A stretch of DNA of 64,000 nucleotides from Escherichia coli (lineage in GTDB: Bacteria; Pseudomonadota; Gammaproteobacteria; Enterobacterales; Enterobacteriaceae). The notes beneath the pieces are model-generated. The model did no database searches. It was not told the origin of the DNA and saw only the letters and a program-made list of their open reading frames with translations. Below are positions 20,596 through 33,765 of the stretch, piece after piece (position 1 is the stretch's first letter; every line of letters starts with the position of its first letter). The translations under genes were made by a program, and so were the position numbers. The DNA lies in the NCBI RefSeq assembly GCF_003991155.1, contig NZ_CP031294.1, one strand, 5' to 3'.

Positions 20596-22155
20596 ATGAC
20601 TGTTCGGATTGTATCTAACGCAGTAAATGCGCTTATTTCTGGCGCAGATGACAAGGTAAAGCAACTGGTGCAGCAAATGTTGAGCTACGAAGTCGAGACT
20701 GGCGACTGGAAGGGCACAAGCACGATGTTCAACTGGAGTAAAAACTCGTTCCCTGCTGGCTTTGCCAAGCCTGTAGCGGCGAACTTGAACAAGGCGGGCA
20801 TCAAATGTGTTCATATCCGCAAAGACAAAGCCCCGGCGCTTGGTAAACCAAATCCTGCGGTTAACCCATTCCCATACAATCCTGATTATGCGTATCAGGA
20901 TCAGACTGTGGAAACACTGGTTCGAGAGGGAATGATGATTGCGCAGATCGCTACTGGTGGCGGGAAATCTAACGTTGCCTGCAAAGCAGCTGCACGTATC
21001 GGTCGAATGACATTATTTTTAACAACCCGCTCTGTTCTGATGTTTCAAATGGCCGAAAACTTCCAGAGATCCATCGACTACCGCGCCGAAAATGGCGAAC
21101 CGTGGTTAAAAGACCAAAAGGTTGGAGTCATTGGCTCGGGTGAGTTCCAGGTATCACGACATATCAACGTCGCTACAGTTCAAACTCTTGCAAGTTTCCT
21201 CGAAGAACCACCACGCGATGCAACACCAGATAAGAAAAGCTACCACCTCAAACGTCGGGAGTTGGTGAAACGCTTCCTTTCAAGTGTCTCTCTTCTTATT
21301 CTGGAAGAGGCGCATGAGTCTTCAGGCTCAAATTTCTATGACATCGCCAGATTATGTGTGAACGCAGACTATCGTCTGGCGCTTACAGCCACGCCGTTCA
21401 TGAAGGATTCGACGGAAGCCAACATGCGCCTGATGGCGGTGGCCGGGCGAATTGAAATTAAAGTCACAGAAAAGTACCTGATTGATCGAGGCATTCTGGC
21501 AAAGCCGTACTTCCTTTATCATAAAGTTGCCTACAAGCCAGACGAGGCCAGAATCAAGGCCGAACTTGCCAACAAACACCTCAATTTTAGAGTTGGTATG
21601 AGCACCGCCTACCAAAAGGCTTATCAGTTGGGGATCGTGTATAATTTGGGACGTAACGAGGCCATAGTGCGCGAGGCATTGCTTTATAAGCAACATTCAC
21701 TCAACTGCATGACTCTGGTTCGTCTTAAACGCCACGGGCAAATCCTGATGGAGATGATGAAGGAGTCAGGTCTTAAAGTTGATTTCATCTATGGGGAATC
21801 TAACCAGACGACAAGGCAAGCAAAGCTGAATAGTTTAGCGTCTGGTGAAATAGATGTTTTAATAGGCTCGACTATTCTGGATGTTGGTGTTGATGTGCCA
21901 AGCGTTGGTGCGGTCATTCTTGCTGGTGGTGGGAAAGCAGAAGTTGAAATGAGACAGCGTGTCGGTCGTGGCTTACGAGCCAAAAAAAATCAGGCAAACG
22001 TGTGTTTTATCACCGATTTCATTGACATTAGCAACAAATACCTGTTGTCTCACTCTTATGAGCGAAAACACATCATCGACACCACACCTGGCTTTGCAGA
22101 AGGTGTATTGCCTATTGATGGAGCATTCGATTTTGGAGTTCTGAAACGAGATTAG
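20596..22155 (+). CDS. SF2 DNA/RNA helicase
   Basis: Walker A ATGGGKS, motif II LEEAH, motif III TATP, motif VI QRVGRGLR. Confidence 0.8.
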   Translation: MTVRIVSNAVNALISGADDKVKQLVQQMLSYEVETGDWKGTSTMFNWSKNSFPAGFAKPVAANLNKAGIKCVHIRKDKAPALGKPNPAVNPFPYNPDYAYQDQTVETLVREGMMIAQIATGGGKSNVACKAAARIGRMTLFLTTRSVLMFQMAENFQRSIDYRAENGEPWLKDQKVGVIGSGEFQVSRHINVATVQTLASFLEEPPRDATPDKKSYHLKRRELVKRFLSSVSLLILEEAHESSGSNFYDIARLCVNADYRLALTATPFMKDSTEANMRLMAVAGRIEIKVTEKYLIDRGILAKPYFLYHKVAYKPDEARIKAELANKHLNFRVGMSTAYQKAYQLGIVYNLGRNEAIVREALLYKQHSLNCMTLVRLKRHGQILMEMMKESGLKVDFIYGESNQTTRQAKLNSLASGEIDVLIGSTILDVGVDVPSVGAVILAGGGKAEVEMRQRVGRGLRAKKNQANVCFITDFIDISNKYLLSHSYERKHIIDTTPGFAEGVLPIDGAFDFGVLKRD

Positions 22156-22157
22156 TT

Positions 22158-22436
22158 ATGAGTGAAAAGAAAACAACTTACTGTCAGGTAGCATTGTCTG
22201 ATAAGGCCAATGACAAACTTGGAAAGTTTCAAGTGAAACTAAAAGAAAAAAATATCAAAATGTCTAAGGCTGAAGTCATAAATACCATTCTGGAACAATT
22301 GACAATGGCCGACTTTGACAAGGTTATATCTTCTGTCGGGGCTTCCGCTAAGACTCGTGAGAAAATCATGCGTATCTATGAGAACTCTAATATGACAAAG
22401 GAAGATCTCAAAACGCTATTAAGCAGATTAAAATAA
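22158..22436 (+). CDS. small hypothetical protein
   Basis: 92-aa lysine-rich ORF, 3 bp after helicase stop. Confidence 0.4.
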   Translation: MSEKKTTYCQVALSDKANDKLGKFQVKLKEKNIKMSKAEVINTILEQLTMADFDKVISSVGASAKTREKIMRIYENSNMTKEDLKTLLSRLK

Positions 22437-22462
22437 TCACGCTATCAATTAGGGAGACAAAG

Positions 22463-22927
22463 ATGAAGTCTCCCATACTGTTCACTTTCTGTTCTAAAAC
22501 TATCATGAAATACTCGCTTCTCCCTCTACTAACGTTACCAGTGTTGATGCTTGCCGCGTGCCAATCACACCCAATATCAATCCATGACGCCAAACCAGCA
22601 CCGCAGGCCAAAGTGTTCAAGTATCAAAGCGCAGCGCCAGCTACGTTGGTGGTAATGAGAGACACAGGTTTTGTAGGAGCTGGATGTGATGCTTCCATTT
22701 TCATCAACGGCGAAACTGTCGCAAAACTGGCTACAGGCGAAAAAGCGACTTTCCATTTAAATGCCGGAGAATTAATTGTGGGTGCATCTCTTGAAGGTGC
22801 AGGTTTATGTGCTCTAAACCCCGCTCGTCAAGAGCGAGAAACGACTCTGAAGAATGGAGACACAAAAGCGTTCAGGGTGTTTACCAGCAATTCTGGTGAC
22901 ATCGACATTCTGCCAACAACTCTGTGA
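22463..22927 (+). CDS. lipoprotein (predicted)
   Basis: GGGAGA RBS; signal peptide ending in lipobox LAAC; 154 aa. Confidence 0.55.
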   Translation: MKSPILFTFCSKTIMKYSLLPLLTLPVLMLAACQSHPISIHDAKPAPQAKVFKYQSAAPATLVVMRDTGFVGAGCDASIFINGETVAKLATGEKATFHLNAGELIVGASLEGAGLCALNPARQERETTLKNGDTKAFRVFTSNSGDIDILPTTL

Positions 22928-22931
22928 TGAC

Positions 22932-23456
22932 ATGACAACCAAAGATATTACCTACGGTATCCAAGCTGAACTCTGGCCGCGAGATTACACTAACGTTGAA
23001 AAACTACTGATGTTCTGGCGCAGAGAACAAATTCCTGTAAGGGTCACTCTCGAAGATGGCCAGGCGTTTTGCATGTACGTTTATGGCCTCATGCCATCTC
23101 GTAACAAAGTTGACCTTTGCCCAGCCCCTTTTGACAAAGAAAATCGTATAAGGCTCCCACTTGAACGCATTAGTACAATTGAATCAGGTGTGGTTGACAG
23201 TATCGCTCACGATTTCAAAGGTCGACTAACAGTTCACCCTGATTATGTCGATAATCGGCCATCACGCCGCGATTTTTTTGCAATTTGCAACCAAGCCTAC
23301 AAAGCAAACAAATCTATAAGGGTGTACATGGCGGATGGCCGTGAAATTGAGGGGGTGTCAGCAGGCGCAGATGCTTGTCAGGTTACACTACGTGTCGAGA
23401 ACGGTAGAAAAATAGTTGTTTTGTTCGATTGGGTTGAACGAATTTTGCCTTTTTGA
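22932..23456 (+). CDS. hypothetical protein
   Basis: Start placed at ATG 22932 (MTTKDITYG), same frame as ORF 22854..23456 but after lipoprotein stop. Confidence 0.4.
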   Translation: MTTKDITYGIQAELWPRDYTNVEKLLMFWRREQIPVRVTLEDGQAFCMYVYGLMPSRNKVDLCPAPFDKENRIRLPLERISTIESGVVDSIAHDFKGRLTVHPDYVDNRPSRRDFFAICNQAYKANKSIRVYMADGREIEGVSAGADACQVTLRVENGRKIVVLFDWVERILPF

Positions 23457-23459
23457 GTT

Positions 23460-23768
23460 ATGAAATCGATATTGTTACCACCATTATTTTTACTTTGCTC
23501 AGTTGCGGCAAATGCAATGGACTATAAGCCTGTCATTCAGTCGCTGATGAATGACGTGTGCTCAACGTCTCAGAATGTATCAGTTTGCATGTATCAATTT
23601 TCGGCAGCCGTAAAAGCAGGAAAAGCGATAGGCGAGAATGTGGAACTGTGTAAGAAAGTGGCAAATGAAGAACGGGCAATGTTGGATTGCGAATCTAGCG
23701 AGTCATCGGCACAGTTCGTTGATGCGCTATTTGACACCAATCGTAAGGCTGTAGAGTCTGTTCAATAA
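23460..23768 (+). CDS. secreted small protein (signal peptide)
   Basis: N-terminus MKSILLPPLFLLCSVAANA is a Sec signal; 102 aa. Confidence 0.5.
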   Translation: MKSILLPPLFLLCSVAANAMDYKPVIQSLMNDVCSTSQNVSVCMYQFSAAVKAGKAIGENVELCKKVANEERAMLDCESSESSAQFVDALFDTNRKAVESVQ

Positions 23769-23945
23769 ATCTATAAGGTTAATAACCGGCTAAGTCCGGT
23801 TATTATTTTTCACATCACTTCTTTATATCTACAAATCAAATAACCTAAATATATATAAGGTCTAAAGCCGCAATCAATTATTTATTTAGGGAACACCTTC
23901 GACGATCTCGCTTTTATTTCTAGGACTTTCATCCCTGCAAAAAAT

Positions 23946-23995
23946 TTAAAAAAAAACACTTGCAATCTTTTTTCGCATATCGATAATTGAACTCG
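23946..23995 (+). promoter_or_regulatory. strong sigma70-type promoter with A-tract UP element
   Basis: aaaaaatttaaaaaaaaacac TTGCAA-16 bp-GATAAT; ~55 bp upstream of ATG at 24053. Confidence 0.6.
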
Positions 23996-24052
23996 TCGAA
24001 AGCGAAGACGCTAACGACAATAAATTTTAAATTTACATAAGGAAAAATTATC

Positions 24053-24703
24053 ATGGCTAACATTATCATTTCTAAAAAATCCATCATTGAAGCTGCTTCC
24101 ATTGTATCCGATGAACTGCGCGAAAAAGCAGATCTGGCAACTCAAACATATAACGAACATTATAAAAATGGTACGCACACTAAAGCAGACAAAGCAAATA
24201 TGCAAGCTGCGACCACTAAACTTGCTTACTTCATCAACAACGTCGTAAACGCAGTAGAAGACGAAAAATTATGCTCTGTTTTCTACTATGCGATTAAAGC
24301 AAGCAAACAAGCGCCAGAAGTATTTTTCCGTGATGCAATGACTAATAGTTATTCTCTGGAAAAACTGGTTTATCTGGTTAAATCAATTAAATCTGGTAAA
24401 TGCGTTTATTCCATCGCTGATATGTCTGGATCTCGTGTATTCGCTTTAATCGATATGATTAACGACGAGATCGACACGTTCACTAATGGCGCTGTTTTCG
24501 ATTTAATGAATGAAGCTAAAAAAGCGTGTGAAATTAAATTGGACGCTGGTTATACTCAAGCCAACCAGTTGATCAATCTTTGCGAACGTCTTGGACTTGT
24601 TGAAAAAGTCAAAGGAGCTGGGAGCGCGAAAGCTGGTACTCAGCAATATCGCTTCATTAAAAATGATTTCTACAATTATTTAGCTGATGCTTTCAAAGCG
24701 TAA
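24053..24703 (+). CDS. hypothetical protein, probably highly expressed
   Basis: 216 aa, optimal-codon bias (ctg, cgc, ggt, gct, atc), strong promoter upstream, hairpin terminator just downstream. Confidence 0.55.
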   Translation: MANIIISKKSIIEAASIVSDELREKADLATQTYNEHYKNGTHTKADKANMQAATTKLAYFINNVVNAVEDEKLCSVFYYAIKASKQAPEVFFRDAMTNSYSLEKLVYLVKSIKSGKCVYSIADMSGSRVFALIDMINDEIDTFTNGAVFDLMNEAKKACEIKLDAGYTQANQLINLCERLGLVEKVKGAGSAKAGTQQYRFIKNDFYNYLADAFKA

Positions 24704-24751
24704 TTAATGGAATCAAGCGCCCACTATGGGCGCTTTAAAGGAGCTTTGAAA

Positions 24752-24955
24752 ATGGTCAGCTATGACAAGATCCGCGCGGAATATCGCGCAAAGTATCGCG
24801 CTTATAAACTAGAATTAATCGATGATTTAATCGCGCAACGCGACCAATTAAATTTTACGTTTTCTGATTTGCTTAACAGCAAGCGAGATTGCAAGCGCAA
24901 ACGTGAATACTTACGTTTAAGCGCATTAATCGGAAAACTTCAAAATTCTATTTAA
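24752..24955 (+). CDS. small basic hypothetical protein
   Basis: Start moved to ATG 24752 with AAGGAG RBS; ORF-track start 24707 overlaps a terminator hairpin. Confidence 0.4.
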   Translation: MVSYDKIRAEYRAKYRAYKLELIDDLIAQRDQLNFTFSDLLNSKRDCKRKREYLRLSALIGKLQNSI

Positions 24956-24975
24956 TTTTTTTAAGGAGCTTAATC

Positions 24976-25206
24976 ATGTTTGTTCTTATCGCTGGCGTTA
25001 ACGTCCATAACGAATATTATGTTAATCGCATCGCTGGGATCGCTGGTTACGCTGGGCGCGCAGTCGAGTTTATCGATGAAACAACGCGTAAAATTGATTT
25101 ATTGAGCGACCAGGAGCGAAAAAAAGCAGACGTGAACGACGCTGATATATTTTTAATGTTAAAAGCGTTTGTAGAAATGGGATTTAAAATCAGTTTACAC
25201 AAATAA
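24976..25206 (+). CDS. small hypothetical protein
   Basis: 76 aa, AAGGAG RBS. Confidence 0.45.
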   Translation: MFVLIAGVNVHNEYYVNRIAGIAGYAGRAVEFIDETTRKIDLLSDQERKKADVNDADIFLMLKAFVEMGFKISLHK

Positions 25207-25212
25207 AATCGA

Positions 25213-25240
25213 GCGCCCACTATGGGCGCTTTTTTCGTTT
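25213..25240 (+). terminator. rho-independent terminator
   Basis: gcgcccactatgggcgc hairpin followed by tttttt. Confidence 0.75.
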
Positions 25241-25257
25241 CCAATACTTCCACAATA

Positions 25258-25285
25258 ACGCGCCATTGATGGCGCGTTTTTTATT
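25258..25285 (+). terminator. rho-independent terminator (second of tandem pair)
   Basis: cgcgccattgatggcgcg hairpin followed by ttttttatt. Confidence 0.75.
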
Positions 25286-25823
25286 GTCTTTAACTCACTC
25301 CAACAACATAAAAATAAGCGCCAAAATAACGCCATAAACGCGCTTTTATATCCTTACCAGTACATACCCATTACTTAACACATTAACGCGCTTAAAACGC
25401 GTTATATTGCGCTATAGCGTATGGTTAATCATTGGCTTTTAGTCTTGCTATGTGATCCGCGTTTATTTGTCGGCGCGGATCGGCATTTTGTTTTGTTCCG
25501 TATCCGCTCGCGTATTATGTGCGCGTGATTTTTCACATAATCACACCACTTAATCACGTATGTGATTATGCTACGAAAGAAATCTGGATGTCTCAGGCGA
25601 CGAAAGTCATCATAATTTTCCCCGCTCGCCTGTCCGACAACCGCTGGTTGGATTCCACCAGCTTCCCGATGTTTTTTTCTACATAAAGGCGAATGCAGCC
25701 GTTTCCCGAAAAAATCCTGGCCGTTTCCCGTCGGCTCATGAATACGTTCCTCGCCGTTTCTGAAAATTTCCCTGCGGCAGCTGGTGGCTATAGAGAAAGG
25801 GCCGTTTCTGGCCCTCTTCTCAG

Positions 25824-26306
25824 TTACACGCCATCAAGGATGTGGATGCGGTTGCTTGCGTATACATTCAGCATAAAGTTAGCGCAAAACAGTTTCCATG
25901 TATCAACGCCAGCGGTATACGTAATGTTTTTGCATTTAATCGCATTGTTGGCGATCCGCATCCCCTGCGATACTGCTTCATCGTCGGAAAATTTGAACGA
26001 CGATTGAGTTTTAATCCAGACAGAAATCTGCGTAGCGAACTCAATCAGCTTGGACTGGCAGAATCGCCCGGAGCGCACCGGAAAGACGAACGTTCCGAAT
26101 CCAGAATTTACCACATATGCTTTCTCAAATACCCGCGAGTAACGACGATTGCCAATGATGTCGCGTGCAATAATGCATTTTTCTTGTGCTGACAGTTCTA
26201 CCGTCTCATTGTCGCGCCATGCACCAAGTACTCGTTTTTCAATGTCAGAGAACGTTACAGCGATATTGCCATGTGCGGGTGCGTTTACAGTAGCGATAAA
26301 ATTCAT
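25824..26306 (-). CDS. hypothetical early protein
   Basis: 160 aa; AGGA RBS; motif-A leader directly upstream (26326-26362). Confidence 0.5.
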   Translation of the reverse strand: MNFIATVNAPAHGNIAVTFSDIEKRVLGAWRDNETVELSAQEKCIIARDIIGNRRYSRVFEKAYVVNSGFGTFVFPVRSGRFCQSKLIEFATQISVWIKTQSSFKFSDDEAVSQGMRIANNAIKCKNITYTAGVDTWKLFCANFMLNVYASNRIHILDGV

Positions 26307-26510
26307 GATTAATTCCTTATCGTAAATAACAAATTGTTTTCTTGTTGGTGTTAATTATCGTTGTACGAATAAGGCGTCAAAGTGGAAAGTTGCGGTAGCC
26401 GGACGGGAACAGGTGGGTTTGTCGGTTGCCTGGAGGTAAGAGGTTGGTGTTTTTAGCCTGCGGGAAACAGGATGGTCATTTAAGGCCACCAGCATTGGTG
26501 GCCTTAATCT

Positions 26511-26791
26511 TTAGTGGAGCAGACCGATGTCGATGGTATCCCCTGAATCATCCACACGGATCATCAGCATGGCAAAGGCGTTTAGTGGATAGCTTGCGTG
26601 CCATTCAGGGAAGCGGTCATCTCGCATGAAGTCGGCAATGTCGTAAACGCATCCCTCAAAGTGGAAGAATCGCGTGCTTACCTGCTCGTCATAATCCACA
26701 TGATCCATTTCTTGCTGTTCTGTTTCCGGCAAGTCCAGCCATGATTCAAGAAATACATTTTGTGCTTTAGGGGTAATGGTGAAATCAGTCA
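26511..26791 (-). CDS. small highly acidic protein
   Basis: ~93 aa with ~19 Asp/Glu vs ~5 Lys/Arg; start at ATG 26789-26791 (ORF-track upstream extension runs through promoter motif). Confidence 0.5.
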
Positions 26792-27127
26792 TGAGCATAT
26801 CCTCACTGCGTAAACATGTTGTTTTCTTGTTGGTGTAATTATCGCAGTGTAGATAAGGCATAAAAGAAGTTAATACAGGCTGAATACACAAGAAAGGTTC
26901 TGGAAGTTGATAGCCAGGTTTCAAACTAACCTTCGGTTATTAAAAGTCATTTAAGACCACCAATGCTGGTGGCCTTAATAATTATCGCCCGATTACGCTA
27001 AGGATCTTTTCCTCAACTGATTTGTTGTTGCGACTAAACTGCCTTGCGTATCTGATGACAGAAGAGGCGTTTTGCTTTCTGACCATCTCGGCTCTTTCCT
27101 TCAGGCGTTTCTTGAAATCGCCCATAT

Positions 27128-27502
27128 TTACCACCAGGCGCAGAAGGTCAGTCTGTTATTGTGAAAGTCGTGGTTCTTAATCAGATCTTCCACAAGCTCT
27201 TTCAACTCCCCCACATCATGCCAGTAACCTTCATCGTACTCCTGACTGCCGAAGAAAAAACCTTCCCGGGTAGGCAAGTACTCTTCGCAATTACTTTCGT
27301 TTATGTGCATCAAATGAGCCTTCAGAAAACAAATGTCATTCATCGTTAATTCTAAAAGCTCACAATTTTCGACTTCACCTACGTTGCGCTCCATCCACCC
27401 AACGAGCGCATTGAACTTACGGAAGTAAGCAACCTGCTTTCTGGATGCCTCGTTATTCAGATCGTTTTTAGGCTGTGTCTCGATATAGATATCAAGTCCC
27501 AT
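27128..27502 (-). CDS. hypothetical early protein
   Basis: Start placed at ATG 27500-27502 (MGLDIYIETQ) with AAGGAA RBS. Confidence 0.45.
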   Translation of the reverse strand: MGLDIYIETQPKNDLNNEASRKQVAYFRKFNALVGWMERNVGEVENCELLELTMNDICFLKAHLMHINESNCEEYLPTREGFFFGSQEYDEGYWHDVGELKELVEDLIKNHDFHNNRLTFCAWW

Positions 27503-27619
27503 GATGGTTTCCTTATTAAGTTGCTTCAGTGAAATCATTTTCACAAATCAGATAAGGCAGAAAACAAATTGTTATCGGGCATAAGAAAATGGCGCGGTTT
27601 ACGCGCCATTCAAAGAGGA

Positions 27620-28015
27620 TTAAGCGAATACGCTTTCAGGGATTAAGGTGTCAGCAGGAATGCCGGAGGTAATGCGCAGGCCGTACTGACCAATCCAGGT
27701 AGTGTTGGTATTCAGGCTGGAGGCGAATACGGTGTTAACCATATTCATCATGGTTTCAAACACCTCTTCATCAACCTGGCGGAAGTAGTTCTCGATTTTC
27801 AGCAGCAGCGGGTCAGTTGCATCGAAAATAGACTGGTATTGAGTCGCGTACTCGCCGCCGGAGGCATCACCTTTACGCACGATCGTACTGGCCTGGACTT
27901 CGGCACCAGTTTCGGTGTTGTACGTAACAACGGTGATTTTTGCCACATTCTTACCTTCGGCGGTTTCAGAGGCATAGTAAACATCAACTGTCAGTTTTTC
28001 GCGTTTAACGGTCAT
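27620..28015 (-). CDS. hypothetical early protein
   Basis: Start placed at internal ATG (MTVKREKL) with GGAGAG RBS; terminator hairpin downstream at ~27572-27598. Confidence 0.45.
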   Translation of the reverse strand: MTVKREKLTVDVYYASETAEGKNVAKITVVTYNTETGAEVQASTIVRKGDASGGEYATQYQSIFDATDPLLLKIENYFRQVDEEVFETMMNMVNTVFASSLNTNTTWIGQYGLRITSGIPADTLIPESVFA

Positions 28016-28141
28016 TTCACTCTCCGTAGTGTTTTGGTTATTTTTATATTCTATGATCGTAAGTATGTACTTACAATACAAAAAAGCCCCGTAAGGATGG
28101 CGGGGCTGTCGTACTGTCGACTAATTACCACTTGCACATTA

Positions 28142-28453
28142 TCAGGCTATTGCCATCACTGATGCTCTCTGAATCTCTTGCTGGGCCACGCGGTTAACTT
28201 CCATCAAAGCCAGTTCGAGCTGATGTTCCGGCCACATTCTTTGAAATGCCACCCAGCCTTTTCCACGCTGGCGACGAACATTCATTACATAACGAGTAAA
28301 GGTGTATTTATCGAAAGACACCGCTGTTTCACGGAACAGACGAATAGAGGTTCCATTGGCAACGATGTCCAGCAAAGTTAATTGAGCAACCAGCGCAGGC
28401 TTCTCTTTTCTCTTCTGGTCTTTGTCCAGACCAAGAACCAATGATTTTTTCAT
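28142..28453 (-). CDS. hypothetical early protein
   Basis: Start at ATG 28451-28453 (MKKSLVLGL), GGAG RBS, motif-A leader at 28465-28490. Confidence 0.45.
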   Translation of the reverse strand: MKKSLVLGLDKDQKRKEKPALVAQLTLLDIVANGTSIRLFRETAVSFDKYTFTRYVMNVRRQRGKGWVAFQRMWPEHQLELALMEVNRVAQQEIQRASVMAIA

Positions 28454-28606
28454 CACAACTCCGTAAACAACTTGTTTTCTCAATGGCGTAAATAATACCA
28501 GTAAGAAAACGGCTACAAAGCATATTGATCAGGTGCATGAGCGATATGCAGGTTCTTCCCTGCGGCTATAGAGAAATTAAGCCAGCATTGCTGGCTTTGG
28601 TTAGGT

Positions 28607-28936
28607 TTACTCGAATACTTCAAGAAACTCCTGAACGTCCCAATGCTGGACAAGGTGAAGATAGACCTTAGAAATAACATCATTCTCGCTATCGCATGTG
28701 AAGTAGTACTTCTGGCTGCGGTTGTATGTGTCCACACAAAATTCGCTCATATCCATAAAGTCAGCATCTTCACCCATGTCGCAAATCATCAAAGCAGGTG
28801 CGTCATCACGAGTCATCAGCTCAAGCACCCACCGCGAATTGATCAGAGTGGAAGACCAACCTTCTAACTCATAAAACTGATCAAACTCTTTTTGAGTTAA
28901 TTTCTTGATTTGGTTGATGTCGATATTTGCAAACAT
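28607..28936 (-). CDS. hypothetical early protein
   Basis: Start at ATG 28934-28936 (MFANIDINQ), AGGA RBS, motif-A leader at 28948-28983. Confidence 0.45.
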   Translation of the reverse strand: MFANIDINQIKKLTQKEFDQFYELEGWSSTLINSRWVLELMTRDDAPALMICDMGEDADFMDMSEFCVDTYNRSQKYYFTCDSENDVISKVYLHLVQHWDVQEFLEVFE

Positions 28937-30490
28937 AAAGCAATCCTTAAACAACATGTTTTCTTGATGGTGTTATTATCGCAATAACGCACAGGTGAAA
29001 AAGGATTTTATTCCGGTGAATGTGGTTTTGGCAGTGAGTTTTCAGGTTCAGTACCGAGTACACTTTTTACATTATTCTGATTTAGTGGCCGAAGGTGGCT
29101 GGTGGGCAGAATAATCCTCTCCCCGAAAACCTACTGAAATCGATTGTGACCCGTTGGCTGTCTGGCACAATTACGCTGTAACTGGGCATTCAGAGGGAAT
29201 CCAGCGGTAAGTAAGTTCGCCTGCACGTGAGCGCCTCTCTTCTTCCCGCACATTACAGGTGGGTAGCCGCAACTCTCCCTCTCGCTATACCGGTACGCCG
29301 CCGTTCCTGAACCGGCATCGAGCCTTCTCCCGAAATCCACACAGGCAACTCGACCGTTTCCCTGAAAACCTCCAGCCGTTCCCCGAAGGCAACCCAGCCG
29401 TTTCTGTAGCGGGATGCAACCTTTTCCCTGTATGGACCGAAGGCTGACCGTAGGGGTGTTACGGGGGATAAAATCAGGAGTTGAATAAATACGAAAAAGG
29501 AGGCGACACCCCTCCTTCTCTCCCCACTTATACATACCTGGCTTCTTCGCTATACATGTTGTGTTTTATTCGTGTTTTATCTGTCTCAACCTCTCTATGG
29601 ACGTTAATACTCACTCCTTCCAGAACGTTCTATACGGCGACTAATTCTGTTGGTGAATTGGGTGTGTTGTTCTCTCTGTCGGTGTATGTGGTTTCGTTCG
29701 TTTTGCGGTGGTTCTTCTATGGGGTGTTCTCGTCGTTTTGGTGATTGTTCTTCTCCGTGTATGGAGTAATGGCAGGTGGGCGATTCCTTTCGTTATTGTG
29801 TTTGAGTTGTTTGTCTGGAGTGCGTGAAGGGCTTTTGTAGTTATTCGTGTGTTGGGTAATGGCGTTTCCCGTGATTGTTCTGTTTCGTGTCTTTTGGGAT
29901 TGAGAGAAACCTTGCGGTTACAGGCTTCGTTGGGGTTTCAGTGATTCTGGTGTTTCTTCGCTGTTTGGGTAATGGCGTGTCGTGGGTATCGCGCGTATGG
30001 AAGTTTCGAATTGCCTGTGAAAGTTAGGTTGGTTGTCCGGTAGCCTGAGAAGAAGAGGTGGGTCTTTTCGGTAGCCTGCCATAAAGAGGTTGGTTGTTTT
30101 TGGTAATGGCATATGTGTTATTTAGTTGTTTTGTTATGCCTGAAAATAAGTTGTTTATATGGTTATGTAACGCAACGGGAACGATTTTGAGCGTGTGTTT
30201 TTGTTGGTAGTGTGTTGGGTCGTCTGTGGTGAAAATTGGACGCTGTGGCGCTGTCTGCTGCGTAGAATTACGGGTATAAGCAGTGATGTGTGAAAACGTC
30301 AATTTTTTAGACCAAATCGGGTGAAAGCGTTGATGTTTCGTTGATCTGTTATTCAGTTGTTTTCTTATTGGTATAAACAACTGTAACCTATTGATATTTA
30401 AGGATGTGATTCCAGGCATGGAAGGGGAGTAGTGGCGATCAACGGATTCTTATAGAAAAGAATCAAATTGTGACCGCCATTATCAATGTT

Positions 30491-31225
30491 TTACTTAGTT
30501 TTGTTTAGCAGAGAGAGAATTTCATCACTAATTTCACTCGCCTGTTTGATAGCCAATGCAGTTACCTCTTCTATGGTTGGTGACTGTTGATGCTCATATT
30601 TGGTTTCGGTTATGACAATGTGTTCTTCACCAGAATTTGCGCATAGTGCCGCATTGACGATAAGGTTTGAGTAAGAATTTAGCAGAGCACTGTTGATGAA
30701 CGCTTTCACGGTATTACTGTCTGCACCAAATACATCTTTTCTGACCGCTTCAGCCTCACAGCGAACCCCTGCAGCAACATCGTGAAGAACATGTATGGCC
30801 TTGGAGCTTGTTTGTTCACAGTACTCAATCATTATTGTCGAATTGTTCTGTTCAACAAACGATCTGATGCCTGACGATTTACCCATAGCATCGAAGGCAG
30901 CGTGACCCGCACTAGTAGAGATATCTTCATAGAGTTCTTCATCGCTATCTTTTTCTTCAGGTGTCGAGGTGTCTTCATCGTCGTAATAGATATTGCCTTT
31001 AATCAGTGTCTTGGACACTTGATATAAACAATAAGAAACGAGATTTAAGCATTGGATTTTAGCTGTATTGTCCTTTGTCGCCTCGCTATTCAGTTCTTTC
31101 GCTTCTTCAGTAAGGCTGTTGATAAGACTTTGTATTTTTTCCAACGCGTTAGGTGCACACTCCGCGTTGTCCATAAAGAATTTATAACCAGTCCCAGGGA
31201 TTTCTAAACTTTTCAACTTTTTCAT
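30491..31225 (-). CDS. hypothetical protein (AT-rich gene)
   Basis: 244-aa ORF with ATG start; AT-rich composition distinct from neighbours. Confidence 0.45.
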   Translation of the reverse strand: MKKLKSLEIPGTGYKFFMDNAECAPNALEKIQSLINSLTEEAKELNSEATKDNTAKIQCLNLVSYCLYQVSKTLIKGNIYYDDEDTSTPEEKDSDEELYEDISTSAGHAAFDAMGKSSGIRSFVEQNNSTIMIEYCEQTSSKAIHVLHDVAAGVRCEAEAVRKDVFGADSNTVKAFINSALLNSYSNLIVNAALCANSGEEHIVITETKYEHQQSPTIEEVTALAIKQASEISDEILSLLNKTK

Positions 31226-31270
31226 TTCTTTGATAATCCTAAAAACAAACTACCAATGCTTTAATATCTG

Positions 31271-31570
31271 TTACCAGTTCCAGCACTCAAGCCCTTCAAC
31301 GACCGGCGCACCACAATCAAAATGTACAGAGTCAAAGCCTACATCAAGTACTTTCTGAATGTTAGCAATCGCGCCTTCGGATATACCATATCGACGCAAG
31401 TCCTCTTTCCAGACATCATCCTGTAACCCAGCGTGGACAATACAACCGCCGTCAATTTGTGAAACCCAATCCAGCTCATTGCTTGCGATCATGAATCGGC
31501 GAGCATCTTCCTCTGATGTATGAGATGAGCTGATCAATGCCACCTGGTAGGCTTGGGTAATGTTCAACAT
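31271..31570 (-). CDS. hypothetical early protein
   Basis: 99 aa, GGAG RBS, motif-A leader at 31583-31617. Confidence 0.45.
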   Translation of the reverse strand: MLNITQAYQVALISSSHTSEEDARRFMIASNELDWVSQIDGGCIVHAGLQDDVWKEDLRRYGISEGAIANIQKVLDVGFDSVHFDCGAPVVEGLECWNW

Positions 31571-31731: not shown

Positions 31732-33765
31732 TTACTTAACCTGGTGGCCTGGTTTAGCACCAGCATCCGGGCTTAACAGGAAGATATCTTTCCCGCCGGG
31801 GCCAGCAGCCATCACCATGCCTTCGGAGATACCGAAGCGCATTTTACGCGGAGCCAGGTTAGCCACCATAATGGTGTGACGACCAATCAGTGCCTGTGGG
31901 TCTGGATAAGCAGAACGGATGCCTGAGAAGACATTACGCTTTTCACCACCGAGATCCAGTGTCAGACGCAGCAGTTTGTCAGAACCTTCGACAAACTCCG
32001 CGTTTTCAATCAGCGCCACACGCAGGTCAACTTTGGCGAAGTCGTCAAAGGTGATGGTTTCCTGAATCGGGTCGTCAGCCAGTGGGCCAGTTACCGGTGC
32101 AGCTGTGGCTTTCACTTCTTCTTTGGATGCTTCCACCAGTGCTTCCACCTGTTTCATATCGATACGGTTATACAATGCCTTGAACGGATTCACTTTATGG
32201 CCCAGCAGCGGTTGCTGGATACCATCCCAGGTCAGTTCTGTATTCAGGAATGCTTCTGCACGTTCAGTCAGTTTCGGCAGTACCGGTTTCAAGTACGTCA
32301 TCAGCACGCGGAACAGGTTAATGCCCATAGAGCAAATCGCCTGCAGATCGGCATCGCGTCCTTCCTGCTTCGCCACCACCCACGGAGCCTGTTCATCGAC
32401 ATATCGGTTAGCCAGGTCAGCCAATGCCATGATTTCACGGATAGCTTTACCAAATTCGCGGCTTTCCCATGCTTCGCCAATCACTTCAGCGGCATCAGTA
32501 AAGGTTTTGTACAGTTGCGGGTCAGCCAGTTCGCTTGCCAGCACGCCGTCAAAACGCTTGTTGATAAAGCCTGCATTACGGGAGGCCAGGTTAACCACTT
32601 TGTTCACGATATCGGCATTCACGCGCTGAACGAAATCCTCCAGGTTGAGATCGATATCATCAATGCGCGAAGAGAGTTTCGCAGTGTAGTAGTAACGCAG
32701 GCTGTCGGCGTCAAAATGATTCAGCCAGGTGCTGGCTTTAATAAAGGTGCCGCGAGACTTGGACATCTTCGCGCCGTTCACCGTCACATAGCCGTGAACA
32801 AACAGGTTGGTCGGCTTGCGGAAGTTGCTGCCTTCCAGCATGGCAGGCCAGAACAGGCTGTGGAAGTAAACAATATCTTTACCGATGAAGTGGTACAGCT
32901 CGGCTGTGGAGTCTTTCTTCCAGTATTCATCGAAGCTGGTGGTATCGCCGCGCTTGTCGCACAGATTCTTGAAGGAACCCATGTAGCCAATCGGCGCGTC
33001 CAGCCAGACGTAGAAATATTTGCCCGGCGCGTTCGGAATTTCAAAACCGAAGTAAGGCGCATCGCGGGAGATATCCCACTGTTGCAGGCCGGATTCAAAC
33101 CACTCCTGCATTTTGTTCGCCACCTGCTCCTGCAACGCACCGCTGCGGGTCCATGCCTGCAACATTTCGCTGAAAGAGGGCAGATCAAAGAAGAAGTGTT
33201 CGGAATCACGCATTACCGGGGTAGCGCCAGAAACCACCGATTTCGGCTCGATCAATTCAGTCGGGCTATATGTTGCGCCGCAGACTTCACAGTTATCGCC
33301 GTATTGATCTGGCGCTTTACATTTCGGGCAGGTGCCTTTCACAAAACGATCCGGCAGGAACATGCCTTTTTCCGGGTCGTACAACTGAGAGATAGTGCGG
33401 TTTTTAATAAAACCGTTCTCTTTCAGGCGAGTATAGATAAGCTCAGACAGCTGGCGGTTCTCTTCGCTGTGCGTCGAGTGATAGTTGTCATAGCTGATGT
33501 TAAAGCCTGCGAAATCAGTCTGGTGTTCCTGACTCATTTCGCCAATCATCTGCTCCGGTGTGATACCAAGCTGCTGTGCTTTCAGCATGATCGGCGTACC
33601 GTGGGCATCGTCGGCACAGATGAAATTAACCTCGTGGCCGCGCATTCGCTGGTAACGAACCCAGACATCAGCCTGGATGTGCTCCAGCATATGGCCGAGG
33701 TGGATTGAGCCGTTAGCGTACGGCAGCGCGCACGTCACCAGAATTTTCTTCGCGACTTGGGTCAT
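31732..33765 (-). CDS. metG: methionyl-tRNA synthetase
   Basis: 677-aa product [29 protein letters not shown]... recalled as essentially E. coli MetG (HIGH motif, KMSKS, C-terminal tRNA-binding domain); start at ATG 33763-33765, ORF-track upstream extension rejected. Confidence 0.97.

Follow-up and report, generated by a model that had tools for sequence, protein, structure and literature searches.

The closest described analogue of the present locus is the promoter-early stem-loop (PeSL) cassette of T4-like phages. Recombination between PeSL copies deletes, inserts or replaces genes of unknown function; where RB49 has a gene between two PeSLs, phi1 has one chimeric PeSL in its place (Arbiol et al. 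2010, PMC2839356; Comeau et al. 2014, PMC4122927). Both the terminator activity of PeSLs and the formation of mini-circles have been demonstrated experimentally (PMC2839356, PMC4122927). The 'linkers' of Botstein and Campbell and the 'morons' described by Hendrix in lambdoid phages are further points of comparison, as are the attC sites of integrons.

The locus described here lies in a 64-kb stretch of Escherichia coli DNA (the window, meaning the whole stretch that was analysed). By its gene content the window is an SSU5/pHCM2-type phage-plasmid, since phage structural genes (portal, terminase and tail proteins) are coded on the same record as RepA, ParB and the element's own replication genes. 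Over positions 25500-29500 the window matches the E. coli plasmid NZ_OW849379.1 (110.7 kb, IncFIB, non-mobilizable) with 100% identity and phage Cyrano (pLF82) with 98.7%. PLSDB contains over 700 related plasmids, from Klebsiella, Escherichia, Enterobacter, Yersinia and Salmonella. We think it probable, at roughly three chances in four, that a family-specific 39-bp unit occurring twice in the window combines a transcript-end hairpin of the minus strand with a recombination joint for cassettes. The exact loss or replacement of the inter-hairpin unit in relatives is what points to this double role.

By analogy, the hairpin is a counterpart of the T4-type PeSL linkers without sequence homology to them. 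Both systems have a stem-loop and a sigma-70-like promoter repeated between the small functionally uncharacterised genes of a hyperplastic region, though here the two repeat independently of each other. In both, the repeats delimit the indels and replacements that distinguish close relatives, a chimeric single copy is left at the junction, and each cassette comes with transcription signals of its own. The usual PeSL stem is GGGG...CCCC, whereas here it is GGCCACCA/TGGTGGCC. A PeSL is one composite of ~100 bp, whereas here hairpin and promoter are separate repeats ~100-130 nt apart, each of them a joint. There are two hairpin copies (and ~6 promoter copies) per genome against ~50 PeSLs, and the host is a temperate siphovirus-type phage-plasmid rather than a virulent myovirus. 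With the linkers and morons the locus shares a conserved intergenic sequence as the point of module exchange and single-gene units with their own promoter and terminator; one of the genes, g11 (CYRAN_109), is itself counted among the morons, with expression in the plasmid (lysogenic) state of Cyrano (Misson et al. 2023, PMC9928086). The original moron formulation does not envisage movement via regulatory sequences, whereas here regulatory repeats are the junctions. The integron resemblance is that every cassette ends, on its 3' side, in an imperfect palindrome, and that the cassettes hold one gene each in an array whose content varies. Identity with an integron was rejected: the array has no adjacent IntI, attI or Pc, its cassettes have their own promoters, R'/R'' core sites are missing, and there are joints beyond the hairpin. 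Our search of the literature on SSU5-type elements found no earlier description.

The first-pass annotation had reported a terminator hairpin duplicated between early gene cassettes. Both sequences are present, and the palindromes could be refined to the intervals given as HP1 and HP2 in Table 1. As given, HP1 reads TTAAGGCCACCA-GCAT-TGGTGGCCTTAA and HP2 reads TTAAGACCACCA-ATGC-TGGTGGCCTTAA. That there are two copies stands, with corrections: the loops are flipped, the repeated unit is larger, at 39 nt, and the genes served lie on the minus strand. As direct repeats the 39-nt units are 82% identical, with the stop codon at one side and GTCAT at the other. Their 28-nt cores are 96% complementary as an inverted repeat, because the loop reads GCAT in one copy and, as its reverse complement, ATGC in the other; the HP2 core thus fits HP1 best on the opposite strand, with one mismatch, while the flanks are direct repeats.

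Table 1. Positions of the hairpins, repeats and genes of the cassette array, numbered from the first letter of the window
Feature	Positions	Strand	Description
HP1	26480-26507	minus	12-bp stem, 4-nt loop (AUGC on minus strand); 3 nt past g1 stop codon
HP2	26951-26978	minus	stem as HP1, flipped loop (GCAU on minus strand), one G·U pair; 3 nt past g11 stop codon
39-nt repeat unit, copy 1	26475-26513		stop codon, 3 nt, hairpin, ATGAC
39-nt repeat unit, copy 2	26946-26984		same layout as copy 1
Interior of deletable 471-bp cassette	26509-26945	minus	spacer, promoter/5'UTR repeat, g1
g1	26511-26795	minus	94 aa, PHROG 1845; cassette gene
g11	26982-27134	minus	50-aa ORF upstream of HP2; CYRAN_109 in Cyrano, most abundant RNA of the array
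g8	27128-27502	minus	124 aa, PHROG 7971; one unit with g11, lost in some relatives
g7	25824-26306	minus	160 aa, PHROG 1641; conserved, downstream of HP1, anchor for relatives
Promoter/5'UTR repeat before g7	26328-26387	minus	TTGACG...GATAAT, then ACACCAACAAGAAAACA-N3-TGTT
Promoter/5'UTR repeat before g1	26812-26871	minus	recurrent indel endpoint (26871, 26819)
Partial promoter repeat before g8	27537-27588	minus	inverted copy of AACAAATTGTT element; indel endpoint 27548/27550
Promoter/5'UTR repeat before g3	28466-28520	minus	indel endpoint 28481
Promoter/5'UTR repeat before g9	28950-29008	minus	site of extra 370-bp cassette in 17 relatives
Hairpin after g9	28579-28597	minus	AAGCCAGC-AAU-GCUGGCUU, distantly like HP1/HP2
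Canonical terminator after g3	28085-28107	minus	GC stem and UUUUUU
Canonical terminator after g4	27587-27611	minus	GGCGCG stem and UUUUCUU
Terminator-like hairpin after g7	25793-25821	minus	
Spacer just downstream of HP1	26431-26471	minus	CCTGTTTCCCGCAGGCTAAAAACACCAACCTCTTACC..., also given as CCTGTTTCCCGCAGGCTAAAAACACCAACCTCTTACCTCC

The hairpin is specific to this family of elements. A 20-nt core (up to three mismatches) occurs twice in the 64-kb window and in none of 100 dinucleotide-preserving shuffles. When IMG/VR was scanned for the exact pattern, the hits were 16 contigs of the SSU5-type phage-plasmid family and one unrelated chance match. The hairpin region is present in 223 of 5,426 complete E. 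coli genomes, at 230 places (one or two per genome), every one of them plasmid-borne. With zero copies in the chromosomes of these 5,426 genomes and two in the window, a dispersed palindrome of the REP/BIME type was rejected. A known Rfam family was rejected too, as no match in the window reaches the gathering score; sub-threshold hits fall only on the double terminator at 25210-25290. Relatives keep the hairpin ~198 nt upstream of g7 even where protein identity falls to 67%.

A hairpin stands behind every one of the array genes g9, g3, g4, g8-g11, g1 and g7, and a promoter/5'UTR element precedes most of them. The consensus of this element is ...GCCTTAT...GATAAT-ACACCAAnAAGAAAACA-N3-TGTTT, and the window contains five matches to it where 0.05 would be expected, each of them on the minus strand. 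The repeating terminator-promoter-gene structure proposed in the first-pass annotation is therefore real. The cassette proteins have no Pfam or PADLOC match and fall only in PHROGs of unknown function. Apparent g1 paralogues, or 'tandem g1 copies', in an ORF-family clustering of 80 loci were discarded as artefacts; unrelated genes had been merged into a 'family 1' because ORF extensions share the translated promoter/5'UTR repeat (…CDNYTNKKTTCL…). A 46-aa ORF starting in the HP1 loop (26355-26495) was likewise rejected as a gene, since it is conserved only as DNA and loop flips remove its ATG.

The exact inter-hairpin unit is missing in 17 of 39 close relatives, and a single hairpin is left at the junction. 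Both flanking segments are kept in the window and 31 relatives whose g7 is at least 90% identical; twelve of these (the window and 11 relatives) have the full arrangement, 17 are deleted and three have other content in the slot. BLAST alignments to phages CMS-2020a and PhiR41_1 break off at 26508 and start again at 26946/7; in the subject the two pieces share 33 nt, the equivalent of one hairpin. The junction hairpins are chimeric; that of one relative (L017) consists of the whole of HP2, G·U position included, followed by the right flank of HP1. Two relatives carry a 310-aa gene, g69, in the orders g11-HP-g69-HP-g7 (L019) and g1-HP-g69-HP-g7 (L051), so that the g69 cassette sits between hairpins in two different left contexts; these are the only loci in IMG/VR at which it was found. 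The slot is thus seen empty, with g1, with g69 or with both, and in a neighbour-joining tree of the g11-g8 flank the deleted state turns up in four or more clusters apart from one another.

The same variation is visible in larger collections. PLSDB holds the full arrangement in 88 records, and in many of its E. coli and Shigella records the span is 1,250 bp exactly (1,721 less 471). The 223 complete E. coli genomes that carry the hairpin region divide into ~114 with g1 and ~109 without. The numerous plasmids in the deleted state may go back to a single event or a few that recombination then spread, which makes event counts uncertain. In the comparison of cassette number and order among relatives that had been proposed, cassette content is accordingly not fixed, and variable content together with chimeric junction hairpins supports the earlier suggestion that accessory genes may be gained and lost in modular fashion by recombination.

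Other cassettes of the array end in the promoter/5'UTR repeats. In relatives g9 is lost between 28944 and 28481, and g8 with g11 between 27550 and 26871, in each case with a 21-nt overlap; the extra 370-bp cassette, which holds a 72-aa gene and is found at 28957/64, also has its ends in this repeat. The hairpin and promoter repeats make up 13.5% of the region, and of the 18 distinct indel endpoints 13 are no more than 5 nt away from them (p = 2e-8). Against a null restricted to intergenic positions the same enrichment is weak (p = 0.035). Selection for intact units accounts for part of the endpoint pattern.

The stretch 22000-31500 is rich in indels throughout. A second duplicated terminator, on the plus strand at 24706-24736 and 25202-25232, consists of AGCGCCCACTATGGGCGCT followed by a T-run; its copies are 90% identical and 496 bp apart. 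They follow genes of the neighbouring divergent array, and the second copy is followed by a strong terminator at 25257-25278. This pair was rejected as a joint, since the common 213-bp indel nearby uses a repeat of the ribosome-binding site (RBS) instead. That indel (24746-24959) removes a 204-nt plus-strand gene (24752-24955), which is missing in at least 8 of 33 close relatives; 14 relatives share both endpoints, and the 13 with 24959/24746 mix junction-overlap and 258-bp-replacement forms. The deletion junction lies in the repeated RBS motif TTAAAGGAGCTT / TTAAGGAGCTT, with an overlap of 12-13 nt.

Judged from aligned variants, the hairpin is an RNA element of the minus-strand transcript under selection. 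Both HP1 and HP2 are stable GC-rich stem-loops just 3' of a gene on the transcribed strand. HP1 folds on the minus strand with -20.1 kcal/mol (z -5.65), and HP2 with -17.4 kcal/mol on the minus strand against -12.9 on the plus strand; its sole stem difference is a G·U pair in minus-strand RNA and an A·C mismatch in plus-strand RNA. With g7 as anchor, 76 related loci from IMG/VR gave 40 distinct hairpin variants. Across these, 87.3% of stem cells are paired, against 24-52% when the partner columns are slid; compensatory changes on both sides occur at 6 of the 12 stem pairs, and the observed covariation score was reached by none of 500 shuffles. Non-Watson-Crick cells in the 10-bp core comprise 45 G·U pairs and 24 mismatches when read as minus strand, and 4 G·U pairs and 65 mismatches when read as plus strand. 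Maintained pairing and covariation, with G·U pairs on the minus strand only, point to the minus-strand RNA as the object of selection.

The tail makes canonical intrinsic termination doubtful. Both copies are followed on the minus strand by UUAAAUGAC, a poor U-tract, and distant relatives have no U-run 3' of the hairpin. In a consensus terminator scan of the minus strand HP1 (followed by UUAAAUGACC) is not called, and HP2 passes solely through a distal UUUU. With canonical terminators behind neighbouring genes for comparison, we therefore label the hairpin a terminator/attenuator and/or 3'-protective hairpin, not a proven terminator; from its sequence it may act as a terminator, an attenuator or a protector of the 3' end.

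Published LF82 transcriptomes (Misson et al. 2023, PMC9928086, S1 Table) give normalised counts, which are per-gene FPKM on very short genes, of 5.7 for CYRAN_108/g8, 57.9 for CYRAN_109/g11, 6.7 for CYRAN_110/g1 and 25.5 for CYRAN_111/g7, and g11 lies above both its neighbours in 10 of 10 samples. RNA abundance thus falls 8.6-fold across HP2 in Cyrano, where the region is 98.7% identical, which fits the RNA reading, if indirectly. The rise of ~10-fold from g8 to g11 is a point against it, and no promoter-like site was found just upstream of g11. The g11 transcript, whose ORF has 47-50 aa, could be a short stable RNA that ends at HP2.

We propose that the unit closes small minus-strand genes in the hyperplastic array of SSU5/pHCM2-type phage-plasmids. 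At the RNA level the 12-bp stem and 4-nt loop would set or protect the 3' end of the upstream message and would partly insulate the next promoter-gene unit, as an attenuator/terminator, a 3' stabiliser or both. At the DNA level, comparison of relatives shows a joint: homology-dependent or slippage-type recombination between the direct repeats, 471 bp apart, removes the spacer, the promoter, g1 and one hairpin and leaves one chimeric hairpin. The hairpin joint also admits other cassettes into the slot, such as that of g69, and the promoter/5'UTR element is a second repeat serving as joint for the neighbouring cassettes. We grade the case for the joint role, which draws on natural variation, as good and that for the RNA role as moderate.

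A history of the duplication can be outlined. Relatives of the Klebsiella type have the stop codon of g8 directly against the start of g1 (TAAATATGACTGATTTCACC), and g11 of the window begins with the same ATATG-GGC-GATTTCA as that g1 start; in other relatives g1 stands directly behind g4, after a promoter repeat. From these arrangements g8-g11-HP2 looks like a cassette bounded by promoter repeats. It looks as though its arrival made the second hairpin copy and the loss of g1 then became possible, an order of events that we infer from the arrangements.

The palindrome itself is dynamic at the DNA level, since its loop has flipped repeatedly. At one site among close relatives the loop is ATGC or GCAT, and among deletion junctions it is CTGC or GCAG; CCACCG-ATGC-TGGTGG and CCACCA-GCAT-CGGTGG also occur at one site, the flip there replacing a G·U pair by an A·C mismatch. 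Precedents are Ripley-type template-switch mutagenesis at quasipalindromes and the small hairpin-associated inversions of chloroplast DNA. In these, as in three independent cases here, the loop becomes its reverse complement and the flanks stay. The loop flips are inversions bounded by the arms, and by this analogy hairpin template switching or arm-to-arm recombination is their likely origin.

It could be argued that the hairpins are ordinary terminators only, that the copies are alike by descent of neighbouring cassettes, and that indels end there via selection for whole units. All endpoints are intergenic, their enrichment over intergenic DNA is modest (p = 0.035), and the neighbouring plus-strand 213-bp indel uses the RBS repeat, not the duplicated terminator. 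We nevertheless consider this account unlikely: junction overlaps of 21-33 nt exactly within the repeats, together with chimeric hairpins, are a signature of homology-guided exchange, and one slot holds nothing, g1, g69 or g1 with g69, with the deleted state scattered over the flank tree. Decidedly improbable, in our estimate, is that the hairpin, as a cruciform or single-strand hairpin, is a structure-specific hotspot of recombination and inversion that drives cassette capture, loss and loop flipping, although it would agree with a GGCCACC core that hardly varies across genera, with loop flips in three independent cases and with the abundance of the short g11-HP2 RNA. A putative element-encoded protein might possibly recognise the hairpin under such a scheme, which if true would amount to an integron-like, recombinase-light cassette system special to phage-plasmids. 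We give very little credence to a dedicated site-specific recombination site, attC-like, folded in single-stranded DNA and cut and joined by a recombinase of the element. In its favour, the core GGCCACC...GGTGGCC is nearly invariant across genera, beyond structural need, loops flip repeatedly, cassettes lie between hairpins and a site-specific integrase is annotated elsewhere on the plasmid. That integrase, however, lies ~55 kb from the array and is the only one annotated in the plasmid parts read; none was found in the 12 kb to the left or right of the array, nor any other in plasmid positions 1-50000 (50-60 and 88-111 kb lay outside the parts read). The cassettes moreover own promoter repeats, other indels of the array use unrelated repeats (promoter/5'UTR, RBS), crossover points vary within the repeat, the sequence has no GTTRRRY core sites, and the G·U asymmetry indicates selection on RNA.

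The same asymmetry bears on two further accounts. One takes the palindrome as a double-stranded DNA operator for a dimeric regulator of the g7 promoter ~130 nt downstream, which would agree with a perfect 12+12 palindrome, strong sequence conservation and an adjacent spacer that is conserved even more. G·U cells, however, break the DNA palindrome yet keep RNA pairing on one strand, and compensatory changes keep pairing, not sequence; the position is fixed 3 nt past the stop codons of different genes, and HP2 lies upstream of a different spacer. An operator is accordingly very doubtful. The other would have the hairpin terminate an antisense transcript of the plus strand, where the tails (UUAAUCUUU, UUAAUAAUU) are more U-rich and where alone the scan calls HP1 terminator-like. 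Plus-strand genes stop at 25206, however, behind two strong terminators, the stem of HP2 contains an A·C mismatch when read as plus strand, a plus-strand U-tail is missing in distant relatives, and G·U pairs favour the minus strand by 45 to 4. We rejected the plus-strand reading on this asymmetry and the missing conservation, and give it next to no weight.

Elements of the SSU5/pHCM2 type are common in clinical Enterobacteriaceae, and their gain and loss of accessory genes are poorly described. If the 39-bp unit is both transcript end and joint, the locus is a sequence-level example of short regulatory repeats that act as joints for single-gene cassettes, in a population divided about half and half for one cassette. 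The PeSL/linker model of modular phage evolution would then apply to a temperate phage-plasmid as well as to virulent T4-like phages, which specialists may find useful rather than surprising. The slot is also a natural place where new genes, possibly of defence or anti-defence, are likely to appear.

The promoter/5'UTR family contains a near-palindrome, AAACA-N3-TGTTT, ~10-25 nt past the -10 box. It occurs on the minus strand at 26351, 26836, 28489, 28973, 30374 and 44426, with an inverted partial copy at 27559-27578, and is conserved at 0.9-0.96 across genera; on this pattern it is a candidate operator. The spacer downstream of HP1 (26431-26471) is conserved across genera beyond the hairpin or the genes, being 0.88-0.98 identical among relatives whose flanking proteins are only 67-82% identical.

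Two gene-free stretches, 28937-30490 (~1.5 kb) and 25232-25823 (~0.6 kb), flank the cassette array and are unannotated by PGAP; no tRNA, tandem array or Rfam match was found in them. GRAAACGGC recurs in them on the minus strand (25699-25735, 29354-29412), and there are CA-rich repeats with GCCATTACCC at 29751-29981. Beside the array (~31732-33765 in the window and, downstream, 78418-88882 in NZ_OW849379.1) the phage-plasmid codes for metG (methionyl-tRNA synthetase), an apbC/MinD-like ATPase, an S24 peptidase, a homologue of DNA polymerase III theta and a type I restriction-modification system that is complete (hsdM, hsdS, hsdR). In two distant relatives a paralogous hairpin, AAGGCCACTA-TATT-TAGTGGCCTT, lies behind a different gene, at -1315 (L073) and -2025 (L074) relative to g7; it has a compensatory stem change and a true TTTTTT tail.
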